From assembly GCA_030390025.1 (NCBI GenBank), contig CM059449.1, positions 13,702,001 to 13,766,000 on the forward strand: 64,000 nt of DNA, in the 5' to 3' direction. Shown here piece after piece: positions 37,125 through 64,000 of the stretch. The notes beneath the pieces were generated by a model. That model worked only from the letters and a program-made list of their open reading frames with translations. It was not told the origin of the DNA and did no database searches. This DNA comes from Squalus acanthias. Lineage: Eukaryota. A program made the position numbers and the translations under genes. Position 1 is the first letter of the stretch; each line of letters begins with the position of its first letter.

Positions 37125-37640
37125 ACTTGCCATAGAGGGAGTGCAGCGAAGGTTCACCAGAATGATTCCTGGGATGGCAGGACTGTCGTATGAGGAGAGA
37201 TTGGGTCGACTTGGCCTGTATTCACTAGAGTTTAGAAGAATGAGAGGGGATCTCATTGAAACGTATAAAATTCTGACAGGGCTAGACAGACTGGATGCAG
37301 GGAGGATGTTTCCCCTGTCTGGGGGGTCTAGAACAAGGGGGCACAGTCTCAGGATACGGGGTAGGACATTTAGGACTGAGATGAGGAGAAATGTCTTCAC
37401 TCAGAGGGTGGTGAACCTGTGGAATTCTCTACCACAGAAGGCTGTGGAGGCCAAGTCACTGAATATATTTAAGAAGGAGATAGATAGATTTCTAGACACA
37501 AAAGGCATCAAGGGGTATGAGGAGAGAGCGGGAATATGGTATTGAGATACCGGATCAGCCATGATCATATTGAATGGCGGAGCAGGCTCGAAGGGCCGAA
37601 TGGCCTACTCCTGCTCCTATTTTTCCATGTTTCTATTTTT
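37125..37640 (+). mobile_element. CR1 3' fragment (near-identical to 58420-59005)
   Basis: QRRFTRMIPGMAGLSYEERLGRLGLYSLE. Confidence 0.9.
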
Positions 37641-52654: not shown

Positions 52655-55600
52655 CACACACACCACAACCTCCCCCCCCCCCCCCCCCACCACACACACA
52701 CACAGCCGCACACACACACACACACACACACCGCCCCCCACACACACACACCAGCCCACACACACAAACACACACCACCACTCCCCCACACAGACACACA
52801 CCGCCCCCCCATACACACACCCCAGCCCACACACACAAACACACACCACCACTTCCCCACACAGACACACACCGCCATCCCACACACACACCCCAGCACA
52901 CACATCGCCCCCCACACACACACACACACACACACCCCCCACACACACACAGCCCCAGCCTCACACACACACACACAGACCGCTCACCCCCACAGACACA
53001 CACATACATACCGTCACTCCACACACACACACGCACCGCCCTCTACCACACACACACACACACCGCCCCCCCCCCACACACACACCGCCCCCCCCACACA
53101 CACACACAGCCCCCCCCCCACACACACACACCGCCCCCCACACACACACACACACTGCCCCCCCCCACACACACACTACCGCACCCCCACACATACACAC
53201 CGAACCCCCCCCACACACACACACACCGCCACCCCCCCACGCACACACACCGCCAGCCCACACACACCCCGCCCCCCCACACACACACACCGCCCCCCCC
53301 ACACACACACACACAGCCCCCCCCACACACACACACCACCCCCCACACACACACACCGCCCCCCCCACACACACACTTTCCACCCCCACACACACACACA
53401 CCCACACCGCACACACACACACCACACACACACCGCCCCCCCCACACACATACATACACACCGACCCCCCATACACACACACCGCCCCTCGCACACACAC
53501 ACACACCGCTCCCCCCCACACACACATGCACCGCCCCCCCCACACACACACACACTGCCTACCCCACACACACACACCGCCCCCCACACACACACAAACC
53601 GCTCCCCCCACACACACACACACACCCCACACACACACACCGCCCCCCCACACACACACACACTGCCCCTCCCACACACACACACACCGCCCCCCCACAC
53701 ACCGCCCCCCCACACACACACAAACTCACACCACCCCCCTCACACACACAAACTCACACCGCCCCCCCCCTCCACACACGCACACACACACTGCCCCCCA
53801 CACACACACAAAATCACACCGCCCCCCCACACACACACACCGCCCCCCCACACACACACTGCCCCCCCACACACAAAAACTCACAGCGCATCCCCCCACA
53901 CACGCACCCCCCCCCACACACACACACACACACACACTGCCCCCCCACACACACAAACTCACACCGCACCCCCCACTCACACACACATACCGCTCCCCCC
54001 AACACACACATCGCCCCTCCACACACACACACACCGCCCCCCCACACACACACGCCGCTCCCCCCAAACACACACACCGCCCCCACACACACACACACCG
54101 CCCCCCACACACATACAAACCGCCCTCCCCCACACACACACACCGCCCCCCCCACACACACACACACACACCGCCCCCCACACACACACACCAGCCCACA
54201 CACACAAACACACACCACCACTCCCCCACACAGACACACACCGCCCCCCCCATACACACACCCCAGCCCACACACACAAACACACACCACCACTTCCCCA
54301 CACAGACACACACCGCCACTCCACACACACACCCCAGCACACACACAAACACACACAAACATCGCCCCCCACACACACACACACACACACACCCCACACA
54401 CACACAGCCCCAGCCTCACACACACACACACAGACCGCTCACCCCCACAGACACACACATACATACCGTCACTCCACACACACACACACGCACCGCCCTC
54501 TACCACACACACACACACACCGCCCCCCCCCACACACACACCGCCCCCCCACACACACACACAGCCCCCCCACACACACACACACCGCCCCCCACACACA
54601 CACACACACTGCCCCCTCCCCACACACACACTACCGCACCCCCACACATACACACCGAACCCCCCCCACACACACACACATCGCCACCCCCCCCACACAC
54701 ACACACCGCCAGCCCACACACACCCCGCCCCCCCACACACACACACCGCCCCCCCCCACACACACACACACAGCCCCCCCCCACACACACACACCACCCC
54801 CCACACACACACACCGCCCCCCCCACACACACACTTTCCACCCCCACACACACACCCACACCGCACACACACACACACACACACACACATCCCCCCCACA
54901 CACATACATACACACCGACCCCCCATACACACACACCGCCCCCCACACACACACACCGCCCCCCACACTCACACACACACCGCTCCCCCCCACACACACA
55001 TGCACCGCCCCCCCCCACACACACACACACTGCCTACCCCACACACACACACCGCCCCCCCACACACACACAAACCGCTCCCCCCCACACACACACACCC
55101 ACACACACACACCGCCCCCCCCACACACACACACACTGCCCCTCCCACACACACACACACCGCCCCCCCACACACCGCCCCCCCACACACACACAAACTC
55201 ACACCACCCCCCTCACACACACAAACTCACACCGCCCCCCCCCCCACACACGCACACACACACTGCCCCCCACACACACACAAACTCACACCGCCCCCCC
55301 ACACACACACACCGCCCCCCCACACACACACTGCCCCCCCACACACAAAAACTCACAGCGCATCCCCCCACACACACACACCCCCCCCACACACACACAC
55401 ACACACACTGCCCCCCCACACACACAAACTCACACCGCACCCCCCACTCACACACACATACCGCTCCCCCCAACACACACATCGCCCCTCCACACACACA
55501 CACACCGCACCCCCACACACACACGCCGCTCCCCCCAAACACACACACCGCCCCCACACACACACACACCGCCCCCCACACACATACAAACCGCCCTCCC

Positions 55601-57310
55601 CCACACACACACACCGCCCCCCCACACACACACACCGCCCCCCCCCCACACACACACACACACACCGCTCCTCGCACACACACACACACTCCACCCCCCT
55701 CACACACACACACTCCACCCCCCCCCACACACACACTCCACCCCCCCCCACACACACACACCGCTCCCCCCCCACACACACACACACCGACTCCCCGCAC
55801 ACACACACTCCGCCCCCCCCCACAGACACACAGACACACCGCCCCCTCACACGCACACACACCGCCCCCCCCCCGCACACACACTGCCCCCATCACACAC
55901 ACACACACTCCGCCCCCCCAACAGACAGTCACACACACCGCTCCCCCCCCACACACACACTCCGTCCCCCCACACATTCACACACACCGCCCCCCCCCAC
56001 ACACACACACACCACCCCCCCCACACACACACACCACCCCCCCCACACACACACACACCGCACCCCCACACACACACTACCACCCCACACACAATCACAC
56101 CGCTCTCCTTCCCACACACATACCGCCCCCCGCAGAGACACACACACTACTCCCACCCCCACGCACACACACCACCCCCCTCACACACACAAACCACCCC
56201 CCCCACACACACACACCACCCCCCCCACACACACACACCACCCCCCACACACACACACACCGCCCCCCTACACACACACTACCACCCCACACACGATCAC
56301 ACCGCCCTCCCTCCCACACACATACCGCCCCCCGCAGAGACACACACACCACTCCCCCCCCCACACACACACACCACCCCCCTCACACACAGACACACTG
56401 CCCCCCCACACACACACACCGCCCCCCCCACACACACCACCCCACCACACACACACACACACCGCCCCCCACACACACACACACTGCCCCCCGACACACA
56501 CACACCAACCCCCCACACACACACACACCACCACCCCCCTCCCCACACACACACCACCCCCCCCACACACACACACCATCCCCCACACTCATACACACCG
56601 CCCCCCTCCACACACATACACACACTGCCCACACACACACACATACACCGCCCCCCTCACACACACACCGGCCCCCCCACACACTCAGAAACCACCCCCC
56701 ACAGACGCACACACACACACCGCCCCCCCCCCACCCCCCCCACACCCCCCCCCCACACACACACACCACCCCCCCACACACGCACACTGCCCCCCCCACA
56801 CACACACACACCGCCCCCACCACACACACACACACACACCGCCACCCCCCCACACACACACACCGCCCCCACCACACACACACACACACACCGCACCCCC
56901 CCCCCCACACACACACACCACCCCCACCACACACACACACACACTGGCCTCTACACGCACACACACCGCCCCCCACACACACACACACACCACCCCCCAC
57001 ACACACACACTGCCCCCCCACACACACACACTGCCCCCCACACACAAAGACAATGCCCCCCCACACACACCATCCCAAACACACACACACACATTCCTCG
57101 CCACGACACACGCACATTCCCCCCGACCCCACCACACACACACCGACACACCCACACACACTTACACCCACACACACACGCACACATCGTCCAACACTCA
57201 CACACTCACACATTGCACCACGTCCCCCGCTACCCCCGCACAGTCAGCGTCTCACACACACCACCTCCCCCACCTCCCCGCACCCCTCCGCCCACACACA
57301 CACAAACAAT
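52655..57310. repeat. 4.6-kb C/A-rich compound repeat with higher-order duplication
   Basis: Units of roughly (CA)n-CCG-Cn. Diagnostic variant blocks recur about 1.44-1.47 kb apart (ccagcccaca at 52751 and 54191; cagcgcatcc near 53884 and 55357). Confidence 0.95.
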
Positions 57311-58419: not shown

Positions 58420-59005
58420 AGGGTCTTGGTGAGACCACACCTGGAGTACTGTGTGCAGTTTTGGTCTCCTTACCTAAGAAAGGATATACTTGCCATAGAG
58501 GGAGTGAAGCGAAGGTTCACCAGACTGGTTCCTGAGATGGCAGGACTGTCGTATGAGGAGAGATTGGGTCGACTAGGCCTGTATTCACTAGAGTTTAGAA
58601 GAATGAGAAGGGATCTCATTGAAACGTATAAAAGTCTGACAGGGCTAGACAGACTGGATGCAGGGAGGATATTTCCCCTGGCTGGGGGTCTAGAACAAGG
58701 GGTCACAGTCTCAGGATACGGGGTAGGACATATAGGACTGAGATGAGGAGAAATTTCTTCATTCAGAGGCTGGTGAACCTGTGGAATTCTCTACCACAGA
58801 AGGCTGTGGAGGCCAAGTCACTGAATATATTTAAGAAGGAGATAGATAGATTTCTAGACACAAAAGGCGTCAAGGGGTATGGGGAGAGAGCGGGAATATG
58901 GTATTGAGATAAAGGATCAGCCATGATCATATTGAATGGCGGAGCAGGCTCGAAGGGCCGAAGGGCCTACTCCTGCTCCTATTTTTACATGTTGCTATGT
59001 TTCTA
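58420..59005 (+). mobile_element. CR1 3' fragment just downstream of the gene B stop
   Basis: VLVRPHLEYCVQFWSPYLRKDI. Confidence 0.9.
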
Positions 59006-59250
59006 TATTCTCCAGAATGCAATTTCAGAAAGCCAAAATGATGCAAAGTTACCGATGGAGTACAAGACATCAAGGGGGAGGTGAAATTCGTCTTCTGCAG
59101 TAGCACAACGTGGGCGATAGCTCATCTTCTGCTCCGTCCGATTTCATTCTCCATTGGAATAGAAAATCGGGTGGACTGAATACGGGCTGCCCATGCTCTA
59201 TAACTCCACTGCCGCTTTCACCCCCACTGTCTTTCCGCACTGTTTAAAAT

Positions 59251-59460
59251 TTATCTTGCCCCCCTGAGGTCACGAGAATTGACGTATCTGAACTCAGGTC
59301 GTCGAGGTTCGGAGAACACGCATGTACTCAGTGAGTTTACTGTGGCGTATTCTACGTGATCTGCTCTCCTGTTCACTCTGTCCTCCTTTCTCCCTTGCTG
59401 TCTATTCAACTGGGCGTAATGCAGAGACTCCTCCTGAGCAACGCCATGATCGGGAAGTGC
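59251..59460 (-). CDS. Gene B terminal exon: ITIM + ITSM-like + YxN tail
   Basis: Acceptor attttaatgcttttag|, phase 0, 70 codons including TAA: ALPDHGVAQEESLHYAQLNRQQGRKEDRVNRRADHVEYATVNSLSTCVFSEPRRPEFRYVNSRDLRGAR*. This frame is absent from the ORF track. Confidence 0.88.
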   Translation of the reverse strand, partial: ALPDHGVAQEESLHYAQLNRQQGRKEDRVNRRADHVEYATVNSLSTCVFSEPRRPEFRYVNSRDLRGAR

Positions 59461-60429
59461 CTAAAAGCATTAAAATATTAAGCTGATCAAGAAACAACAA
59501 TTGCCAGCATTGAAACTCTGTGCTTTTTTGAGATTTCAGCCCAATTGCCGACGTTCTCTTCCACACTGTACTAAAATCAAGACACATGGCAGTTTCTCCT
59601 GATTTAACTCATGCATTCCAGGAACTCGGAGTGGGGAAACTCCTTAAATTAATGAACCTCCCCTGAATCTAAAAAACTCAGTCTTGTTTCATCTAATCAA
59701 GTATTTTTAATTTGTCTGCTCTTCTCTGCCACTTCAGCATCGGTGGGCCCATGCCCTTCTGCAAGGTTACCAAAATCCCAAGACCACAAATATGCTGTCA
59801 ATCAAATGTTTCTAATGAGACAAGTAAAGGATTCCGTATAAAAGAACCCCAGTTATAAATCGTCGGGAGCGCCAGTAAGTTCATCTTTCTGTGTTTAGGA
59901 AGGTGTTGGATGTATGGAATAGTTTCCACTTCCATAGCATGGGGCAGTTAATGGTCGCGCACAACATAGGGCTGGATGCAAAAGTACAGCTTCCTCGACT
60001 CTATAAATGGGCCATATCAAGGAGCTCAAACGAGCGCTCCTGTGCCAGAATTGCAACATTTTTCGACTGTCCACTGGTCTGAGTCAAGAGCGATCTGAGT
60101 GAGATTGTCAGTTTGATGCAAATCTAACGCCAATTTTCTGACCGAGGCAAATATAGACTAGGAATTGGGTTGGGGTGCATTGAACCCGTTTCAATGCGAA
60201 CAAGTACAAACGGAAATGATTCGGGGGTGATTAGCTTTCGGCGGTAGCGCAAAATGGGCGATATCAAATCGGCCGCCCGTCTTACACCTCGCCGGATTTT
60301 GTTTTCCATTGACTGCAGGGCTGACAGTTCGAAATCGCCGTTTTCCGCTACCGCCCAAGCCCAATTTTATCCCCTAGATTTGCATCCCGTTAGATTGAAT
60401 TGATTTGAATTCAAATCGTAATGCAGTAG

Positions 60430-61170
60430 GAGGGTGGTTGCAGTTTGGAACTTTCTGCAATTGATGCTGGGTCAATTGTTAATTTTAAATCTAAGATTGA
60501 CAGATTTTTGTCAACCAAAGGTATTGAGGGACACGGGGCAAAGGCGGGTATATGGAGTTTGGTCACAGATCAGCCATGATCTCATTGAATGGCGGTGCAG
60601 GCTCGAGGGGCTGAATGGCCTCCTCCTGTACCTATGCTCCTAAGCACAGAAGGAGGCCATTCGGCTCATCGTGACTGTGTCGGCTCTTTCAAAGAGTTAC
60701 CAAATTTGTCCTCTTTCTCTGTCCTTTCTCCGGAGCCCTACAAATGTTCCCCCTTCAAGCATTTATCCAATTCCCTTTCGATATTTATTATTGAATCTGC
60801 TTCCACCACCCGTTCAGGCAGTGCAATTTGGATCATAAAAATGTTCTGCGTAAAAAAAAATCTCCTCATCTCCACTCTGGTACTTTTGCCAATTACTTTA
60901 AATCTGCGTCCTCTGGTTACCGACCCTCCTGCCACTGGAAACAGTTTCTTTACTCTATCAAAACCCTTCATGATTTGGAACATCTCTATTATATCTCCCC
61001 TTAACCTTCTCTGCTCAAAGGAGAACAACCCCAGTTTTTCTAGTTTCTCAACGTAACTGCAGTCCTGTATCCCTGGTGCCATTCCAGTAAGTCTCCTTTG
61101 CACCCACTCTAAGGCCTTGACATCCTTCCTAAAGTATGGTGCCCATAATTGAATGCAATACACCAGCTGA
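60430..61170. mobile_element. Two CR1 3' fragments joined tail to tail (plus 60430-60640, minus 60641-61170)
   Basis: Plus-strand 3' UTR abuts the minus-strand ORF YCIQLWAPYFRKDVKALE. Confidence 0.8.
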
Positions 61171-61323
61171 NNNNNNNNNNNNNNNNNNNNNNNNNNNNNN
61201 NNNNNNNNNNNNNNNNNNNNNNNNNNNNNNNNNNNNNNNNNNNNNNNNNNNNNNNNNNNNNNNNNNNNNNNNNNNNNNNNNNNNNNNNNNNNNNNNNNNN
61301 NNNNNNNNNNNNNNNNNNNNNNN
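61171..61323. other. Run of N within a gene B intron
   Basis: 153 N. Confidence 0.99.
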
Positions 61324-61449
61324 TTTATTGACGGCTTTATGCTTCAGATAATGATGATTTTTCACCCCTGAGGCCTTAAAATATTGGAACCGTAAAATCC
61401 TGTTACAACCGTCTATCTGTTGACATGTATAACATTTGATAGTTCTTAC

Positions 61450-61514
61450 TTGTGTTGTTGCCTGTACATCGCTGGAACCTGTGGGAATGATGATCGTGCC
61501 AGACGCATGAAATG
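61450..61514 (-). CDS. Gene B cytoplasmic exon (TFHASGTIIIPTGSSDVQATTQ)
   Basis: Acceptor aatttaattttttcag|, donor CAA|gtaaga; 65 nt, phase 1-0 bridging the TM exon and the ITIM exon. An internal cccacag acceptor in the same phase is also possible. Confidence 0.7.
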
Positions 61515-62279
61515 CTGAAAAAATTAAATTTGTCATATAACAGGAATGTTAATGCAGCTACTTAGATAGCAATATGAATGAACAAGAAATCTCATCTCGG
61601 ATCTCAGATAATAACTGTAACAAAAAATTGAATGATTTCCCTTCCTATTAAACTCTACCGAACAAAAAAGAAATTAAGAAAAAATAAAATTGATAAATAA
61701 CCTCTGATTCTTCCCCTGTCAATTATAGCATCTTCACCATGTTATGGCAATTCAGTAACAAAGTGTTGTAACTCAGTGACATCCCCTAGCCTGCTCCCCA
61801 GTGGCATCATCAACCTTTGAAAGTTTGAACAAAATGGTTTATTTAATTCTCCAGGAGTCACAATCCCTTGTCGTTCTGCTTTAGAATAACACCCAAATCA
61901 TCAGTTTGTCGTTAAATGCTTAGAAATGGTGCATAGCAATTACTCTGGTCGCTATGTGTAGCGGTGTGGTGAGTTCGTTACGATGTCCTCTGGTCCCCAC
62001 TTCTAGCAAAATCGTAAATGCATTTTAATCGAATTATGTTCAATCCCCTCAACAAAGGGTGCGGCAGAATGGTTCTGACAGTTGACCTCATGACCCCTGC
62101 ACCCAGGAAGAGGAAAAAAAGCACCTCAGGTTCTGTTAGGAACTGTCCCCATGTTGATGCCTGTCGAGGTTAGTTGGGCACCCTGCGGACCTTCTTCTCA
62201 AGGGTCCCATATGGCCAATAGTCACTTGGACATGTTACCAAACAAATCCTTCCGGGCTGAGGAACACTATCCCTACATC

Positions 62280-62482
62280 TGTGAGAAGTCGCACAACACC
62301 AGGTTATAGTCCAACAGCTTTATTTGAAATCACAAGCTTTCGGAGCTGCTGCTCCCTCGTCAGGTGAAGGAGCAGCGCTCCGAAAGCTTGTGATTTCAAA
62401 TAAAGCTGTTGGACTATAACCTGGTGTTGTGCGACTTCTCACATTTGTCCACCCCAGTCCAACACCGGCATCTCCACATCAT
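62280..62482. mobile_element. Short hairpin Penelope-like insertion
   Basis: Inverted repeat 62280-62443 plus a short tail; flanked by a 12-bp duplication tatccctacatc (62268-62279, 62483-62494). Confidence 0.8.
62330..62367 (-). ncRNA. Minimal hammerhead ribozyme motif (second family)
   Basis: Minus strand reads tcac-CTGACGA-g-ggagc(agca)gctcc-GAAA-gc-TT-gtga. Confidence 0.7.
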
Positions 62483-62548
62483 TATCCCTACATCGTCAAC
62501 GCTTTCAGAAGAGGGCAATATTTAATTTGGTACAACGACAATACAAAC

Positions 62549-62668
62549 TTTTATTGCCCCAAATCAGTCGAAATGTCAGAAATACGATTAACACAGCTAT
62601 CAACGCCAGCGCGCCCAGCAAAATCGGTGTTATGTCGGTCCTCGCATTCTTCGTTTCCTTTGTGCGGC
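62549..62668 (-). CDS. Gene B transmembrane exon (ectodomain exons presumably beyond window end)
   Basis: Acceptor ttcattctatttatttcag|, donor A|gtttgt; 120 nt, phase 1-1: RTKETKNARTDITPILLGALALIAVLIVFLTFRLIWGNK. Ends in NK plus one nucleotide, as the gene A TM exon does. Confidence 0.85.
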
Positions 62669-63762: not shown

Positions 63763-63981
63763 CATGATGCGGAGATGCCGGCGTTGGACTGGGGTGGACA
63801 AAAATGAGAAGTCGCACAACACCAGGTTATAGTCCAACAGATTTATTTAAAATTACAAGCTTTCGGAGCTGTCGCCCCTTCCTCAGGTAAAGTAACTTTA
63901 CCTGAGGAAGGGGCGACAGCTCCGAAAGCTTGTAATTTTAAATAAATCTGTTGGACTATAACCTGGTGTTGTGCGACTTCT
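63763..63981. mobile_element. Short palindromic Penelope-like insertion
   Basis: Perfect palindrome 63804-63984 (90-bp arms, 1-nt centre); 13-bp duplication catggttatttga (63750-63762, 63982-63994). Confidence 0.82.
63898..63935 (+). ncRNA. Minimal hammerhead ribozyme motif (mirror copy at 63853-63890, minus strand)
   Basis: ttac-CTGAGGA-a-ggggc(gaca)gctcc-GAAA-gc-TT-gtaa; present on both strands because it lies in a perfect palindrome. Confidence 0.7.
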
Positions 63982-64000
63982 CATGGTTATTTGAGAGGAA

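Follow-up and report, generated by a model that had tools for sequence, protein, structure and literature searches.

A stretch of 64,000 nucleotides of the Squalus acanthias genome (assembly GCA_030390025.1, contig CM059449.1, positions 13,702,001 to 13,766,000; hereafter the window) raises the question of which receptor family owns a cytoplasmic tail with paired inhibitory tyrosine motifs that is encoded on its minus strand, and which an earlier note, made from the sequence alone, had set beside PD-1 and BTLA. The analysis reported here indicates that the gene concerned, designated gene A, is very probably a paralogue within the shark NCR3 (NKp30) family, of the type bearing immunoreceptor tyrosine-based inhibitory motifs (ITIMs), and a putative inhibitory receptor acting through SHP-1/2. 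Coordinates are those of the window, and all exons described lie on the minus strand.

Tail exon, predicted splicing and orthologues of gene A

The terminal cytoplasmic exon of gene A (59460-59251) encodes 69 amino acids followed by a TAA stop, in a frame open from stop to stop, and begins in phase 0 after a polypyrimidine/TAG acceptor (TTTTAG). As the earlier note had described, it carries LHYAQL (ITIM 1, 59424-59407), VEYATV (ITIM 2, 59355-59338), the tyrosine of which lies 23 residues past that of ITIM 1, and a distal YVNS (59286-59275), a candidate GRB2/GADS-type YxN site with its tyrosine 21 residues past that of VEYATV. The remark that the open reading frame (ORF) track had missed this exon is plausible, since ATG, GTG and TTG starts give only a 52-residue ORF without the first ITIM. 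Although the second motif occupies a position like that of an ITSM (immunoreceptor tyrosine-based switch motif), it matches the ITIM pattern (S/I/V/L)xYxx(I/V/L) and not the ITSM pattern TxYxx(V/I), as these are defined in PMC12151841.

The frequency of such motif pairs was estimated in window frames of at least 60 amino acids, with the CA repeat removed and N-containing frames excluded. Two ITIM/ITSM-pattern tyrosines 18-30 residues apart were present in 3 of 306 frames, one of which also contained a later YxN, while shuffled sequence (20 shuffles, 193 frames) gave means of 1.05 and 0.05 frames, respectively. The tyrosine pair alone thus barely exceeds chance, and the exon is considered real because homologous exons occur in gene models of Heptranchias, Pristiophorus, Scyliorhinus torazame and Mobula. 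Alignments of the tail to the four orthologous tails gave z scores of 11.7-31.5, which none of 1000 shuffles reached in any case. A homology search with the 69-residue exon alone returned four candidates, none at E<=10, a Pfam search of it gave no match, and no paralogous transmembrane (TM) or tail exon was found elsewhere within the 64 kb.

The earlier note had made its reading depend on the conservation of all three tyrosines. This was borne out for the ITIM pair in sharks and a ray: the first tyrosine is kept in all four models (LHYSQL, QYYAQL, LNYTQL and VQYSQV) and the second in the three that reach it (LEYASV, VEYASI and TEYASV), with a spacing of 22-23 residues. The third tyrosine could be compared in the window, Mobula and Heptranchias isoform X1, as the two models fused to the next gene do not extend there; it is kept in Mobula, where YSNS followed by xDL aligns across an 11-residue gap, and is missing from Heptranchias X1, which ends earlier.

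The same note required the tail to be spliced to a TM exon. The stalk and TM exon (62668-62549; 120 nucleotides, phase 1 at both ends) starts exactly where the range of that note ended, and matches the Pristiophorus model P0001 at 79.5% over 44 amino acids and the Heptranchias model P0023 at 76.9% over 39. By hydropathy, its hydrophobic core contains no charged residue; a single arginine at the inner edge is absent in Mobula. A direct join of this exon (phase 1) to the tail (phase 0) is out of frame, and a linking exon is therefore required. Such an exon was mapped at 61478-61450 (29 nucleotides, phase 1 to 0), with a CAG acceptor and a strong donor (GTAAGA following CAA), and was the best of 133 candidate phase 1-to-0 exons compared with the corresponding segment of P0001 (score 31, the next reaching 18). 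An alternative in-frame acceptor at 61514 uses the same donor, has the same score of 31 and adds 12 amino acids. Through the linking exon the three exons chain open and in frame, and the tail would be spliced to the TM exon in this indirect form.

The resulting chain is identical to Pristiophorus P0001 at 71 of 96 positions, to Heptranchias XP_067830066 at 63 of 99 and to S. torazame P0017 at 42 of 87; the Mobula orthologue is XP_062903495/6. The Heptranchias and Pristiophorus models join an immunoglobulin variable-type (V) domain to TM, linker and tail segments, the latter model being fused to a second gene, gene B, which follows gene A, while P0017 comprises the TM segment, linker and first ITIM with no recognisable V domain. 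The Pristiophorus fusion leaves the tail just past the second ITIM, at a point that corresponds to a weak phase-1 GT in the window (59327). This fusion and that of P0017, also with gene B, may represent either mis-annotation or read-through splicing.

The RNA reads of four runs fall almost entirely on repeats, with trace cover over 58990-59373 in one run. None of the 15 splice joints listed, out of 62, matches a gene A exon border, a result that is uninformative on expression either way. Runs of N occupy 44360-45244, 46884-47035 and 61171-61323; a small exon could be concealed in the third, which interrupts the intron separating linking exon and tail. Two near-perfect palindromic elements resemble miniature inverted-repeat transposable elements (MITEs), one immediately 3' of the donor of the TM exon (62280-62482) and the other at 63764-63984; they are 94-99% self-complementary and 84% identical to each other, with a part copy at 41267-41330.

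Relationship to the shark NCR3 family

In order to place gene A, a phmmer search was performed with the Heptranchias orthologue P0023 against 1.84 billion representative sequences, giving 13 hits at E<=0.001. Three of these were the query itself and the Pristiophorus and Mobula orthologues, and one was an unrelated repeat protein (P0027), which was dropped. The other nine are V proteins of NCR3 type, found in sharks, turtles and a frog; eight of them were looked up, and four bear the name NCR3 or NCR3-like in a source. The closest non-orthologue is the nurse-shark NCR3 protein QTT61901.1 (E 1.8e-18), with which the orthologue V domain shares 42 of 93 residues, and the best PDB match of QTT61901 is human NKp30, both by sequence (E 7e-10) and by fold (E 6.9e-10). 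The relationship extends to the tail: an NCR3-like paralogue of Heptranchias, P0035, shares this exon and the interval of 23 residues between the tyrosines (z 14.5), whereas the tail of gene B does not resemble it (z -0.5). In an ESM Atlas feature search an NCR3-like cluster ranked first (0.97).

The gene architecture is also shared. QTT61901.1 and Heptranchias XP_067829801 combine, as gene A would judging by its orthologue models, a single V exon, a TM exon, one or more short linker exons and a terminal exon with a VEYAT-type motif; XP_067829801 has both tyrosines 23 residues apart and is located on the same Heptranchias contig. In the orthologue models of gene A, unlike these proteins, both an extra juxtamembrane segment and the V-domain A strand are missing, and the gene A tail continues past the second tyrosine, with YxN present in the window and in Mobula. 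Gene A would descend from an NCR3 subtype that carried ITIMs and was duplicated. Kinlein and co-workers reportedly described, in 2021, eight divergent nurse-shark NCR3 subtypes linked to the major histocompatibility complex (MHC). PMC12227049 likewise describes NCR3 as MHC-linked, and lists eight accessions as NCR3 genes. Further ITIM-bearing NCR3-type proteins occur in catshark and turtles (P0028, P0031, P0032/P0037), and in the catshark model the unit of ITIM type precedes another V unit, the tail of which is short, an arrangement resembling a paired-receptor tandem. Since ITIM-type shark NCR3 subtypes such as QTT61901.1 are already deposited, and may figure in the 2021 account of Kinlein and co-workers, the novelty of gene A is limited.

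A V-domain tree of 18 rows, built with no PD-1 or BTLA outgroup, places gene A at the node of QTT61901, P0035 and P0029 and leaves the fork open; Mobula forms a very long branch, and the tree was not used as proof.

Several observations weigh against this assignment. The window holds no immunoglobulin (Ig) exon of gene A, as an NCR3-type V-domain profile finds only that of gene B (34720-34418); the exon lies outside the window, and the ectodomain is therefore known from orthologues only, all of which are automatic gene models, those of Pristiophorus and S. torazame being annotated only as fusions of gene A with gene B. Direct PDB searches with the gene A V domain gave weak matches to antibodies and other Ig domains, with no NKp30 among them, so that the link to NCR3 is made in two steps. 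Of these searches, that with a profile of the three orthologue V domains produced 12 weak matches (best E 0.011) with no NKp30, PD-1 or BTLA, and a fold search with the low-confidence model retrieved generic V domains. The Heptranchias orthologue scored 19.8 bits against Pfam V-set, below the cut-off of 26. In addition, the donor of the TM exon is weak (GTTTGT following A), with read-through stopping 14 codons on; ITIM 1 in Pristiophorus lacks the hydrophobic residue at position -2; and within about 1.9 kb of the tail stop there are only variants of the polyadenylation signal, with no canonical AATAAA or ATTAAA.

Proposed function and alternative explanations

Gene A has the features of a type I receptor with conserved, tandem ITIM-pattern tyrosines and an uncharged TM core, and SHP-1/2 recruitment is the likely output of its tail by analogy with other such receptors. 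The protein would span the membrane once and be displayed on lymphoid cells. A Src-family kinase would phosphorylate its two tyrosines, to which the paired SH2 domains of SHP-1/SHP-2 (or SHP-2L) would then bind, damping nearby activating receptors. In some lineages the YxN site may add GRB2/GADS binding.

Human NKp30, to which gene B and QTT61901 are closest in the PDB, likewise has one V domain; according to PMC6514059 its activating signal depends on an arginine in the TM segment and on CD3zeta/FcRgamma, and it has alternative tails with opposing output. In contrast, the TM core of gene A lacks the arginine of an activating NKp30, and the protein has its own ITIM pair; it would not be expected to pair with CD3zeta/FcRgamma. 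NKp30 is known as an activating receptor in mammals, and the cartilaginous-fish family would, judging by this locus, include conserved members of inhibitory type. This implies that NCR3 signalling was already paired, activating and inhibitory, close to the origin of jawed vertebrates. Gene A is accordingly a cloneable candidate for the inhibition of shark natural killer (NK) or T cells.

Splicing may add a further level of control. Heptranchias isoform X2 skips the 29-nucleotide exon, and the tail is then read in another frame without ITIMs; the corresponding frame in the window stops after 18 residues and contains no tyrosine. Inclusion or skipping of this exon would decide whether the tail is inhibitory or unable to signal, although the skipping, predicted in one automatic model, may be either a regulated switch or splicing noise.

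The ectodomain of the orthologues is unusual. In the Heptranchias, Pristiophorus and Mobula models the V domain starts at the same alignment column, just ahead of the first cysteine, so that the A strand is missing in all three models showing a V domain, with both cysteines kept. The domain is much eroded in Mobula and unrecognisable in the S. torazame model. Between Heptranchias and Pristiophorus, 47 of 93 V-domain residues are identical in gene A against 66 of 103 in gene B, while the order is reversed for the TM exon (32 of 40 against 27 of 45). AlphaFold2 runs with 12-sequence alignments that differ in one row gave predicted local distance difference test (pLDDT) values, by block, of 48-63 for the V domain of gene A and 65-94 for QTT61901. 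The truncation could be an error of gene modelling, the models being predicted; the low model confidence and the divergence are consistent with an eroding V domain.

Taken together, these features permit a joint reading that is speculative and rather unlikely as a whole, in which gene A encodes an inhibitory subunit derived from NKp30 and no longer binds a ligand. The A strand would have disappeared before the split of sharks and rays and the V domain would have been eroding since, while the TM segment and ITIM tail remained under selection; the protein would donate its ITIMs in cis to another receptor, perhaps gene B, with its intact V domain, no charged TM segment and no ITIM, and the 29-nucleotide exon would serve as an on/off frame switch. 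If true, such an ITIM donor would be the inhibitory counterpart of the adaptors carrying immunoreceptor tyrosine-based activation motifs, derived from a receptor. No earlier account of the truncated V domain or the frame-switch exon appeared in the literature searched, the coverage of which did not include the main papers on the NCR3 family.

The same observations bear on a different explanation, namely that gene A is a decaying duplicate, with a recognisable locus the protein of which has, in some species or in all, ceased to reach the cell surface or to signal. The onset of the V domain at the B strand, its erosion in Mobula and S. torazame, its low-confidence modelling, the annotation of two of the four orthologues as fusions only and the weak TM exon donor would all fit such decay. 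However, the three exons in the window are open with proper borders, the TM exon is better conserved between Heptranchias and Pristiophorus than that of gene B, and the sharks and the ray have kept the two tyrosines at nearly constant spacing. Decay is regarded as improbable.

BTLA has a membrane-proximal YxN ahead of its ITIM and ITSM. It thus resembles gene A in having an ITIM with an ITSM-like partner plus a YxN site, and its tandem ITIM/ITSM pair is noted in PMC12151841. In gene A the YxN is indeed distal, the difference from BTLA that the earlier note had pointed out, and is not universal among orthologues. The Atlas search placed a BTLA cluster tenth (0.95), and many receptors have tandem ITIMs with a spacing of some 18-30 residues, which would leave room for BTLA or another ITIM receptor (CD300, SIRP or CD28HL3) located by chance beside an NCR3 gene. 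Against this, the V domain is close to that of QTT61901, the tail exon is common to an NCR3-like paralogue, the orthologue ectodomain and the neighbour are both NCR3-type, and CD28HL3, an ITIM-type relative of CD28, is recorded as not found in Chondrichthyes in PMC11599192. An origin of this kind is very improbable.

The remaining candidate is PD-1 (PDCD1) or a duplicate of it, which shares with gene A the succession of V domain, TM segment and tail, two tyrosines about 25 residues apart, a second motif EYAT(I/V) and, probably, the same SHP logic. The literature offers further resemblances: bichir and sterlet PD-1 carry DHVEYATI, near the window motif; the residue at ITIM pY+1 is Ala in PD-1 of cartilaginous fish (PMC12151841); Thr is missing from ITSM -2 in primitive PD-1 (PMC11599192); and NKp30 is counted within the CD28/PD-1 structural family (PMC6514059). 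The VEYAT-type resemblance is real, yet the shark NCR3 paralogues P0035 and P0024 also carry VEYATI. Moreover, the window motifs do not show the PD-1 signature, given in PMC12151841 as (I/V)(D/E)Y(A/G)(E/V)L(D/E)F and (T/V)EYATIx(F/Y), as there is no D/E at ITIM -1 and no F/Y at +5 of either motif. By-eye comparison with the catshark and skate PD-1 sequences of PMC12151841 showed that these have DYAVL and YATI(V/I)F 25 residues apart and a different TM segment, and a term search of the nine supplements of PMC11599192 found no gene A motif but HVEYA, in sterlet PD-1. No PD-1-named protein was among the 13 phmmer hits, and the neighbourhood, as far as the 64-kb window shows with its single identified, NCR3-like neighbour, may differ from the published PD-1 markers. 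The PD-1/BTLA frame of the earlier note was not supported, because the orthologue V domain is NCR3-type, gene B adjoins and the catshark and skate PD-1 differ; identity with PD-1 is the least credible of the explanations, and PD-1-like tails are not diagnostic of PD-1.

The neighbouring gene B and its surroundings

The only neighbour identified in the 64 kb is gene B (39305-22544), a complete NCR3-like gene 20 kb downstream of gene A on the same strand, in a head-to-tail arrangement. Its seven exons (39305-39245, 34743-34417, 34059-33925, 32810-32792, 32669-32635, 28563-28520 and 22627-22544) form an open chain with AG/GT borders encoding 234 amino acids. The V exon (34743-34417) has human NKp30 as its best PDB match (E 4e-10), and a search with it found nine shark proteins, the clusters of which include the nurse-shark NCR3 protein QTT61900.1. 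The TM segment is uncharged and there is no canonical ITIM; the tail has only two tyrosines (KAYALL and DSYLHC), the V domain is intact, and the gene is conserved in the nine shark proteins. The order of gene A followed by gene B is repeated in both fused models and, to judge by adjacent accessions, on one contig of Heptranchias, where XP_067830066/67 lies with the gene B of that species. The catshark orthologue of gene B, P0018 (XP_038672820), and catshark PD-1 (XP_038672536) have close accession numbers, hinting at a location on one chromosome.

Genes A and B are separated by a degenerate CA-rich tandem array of about 4.5 kb (52691-57212) with a 48-nucleotide higher-order unit, which gives rise to spurious frames of 1600 amino acids. 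Two copies of the end of a long interspersed nuclear element, which we take to be of CR1 type, are located at 58488-59002 and 37125-37640 and are 95.5% identical, a closer match than among other copies in the window.

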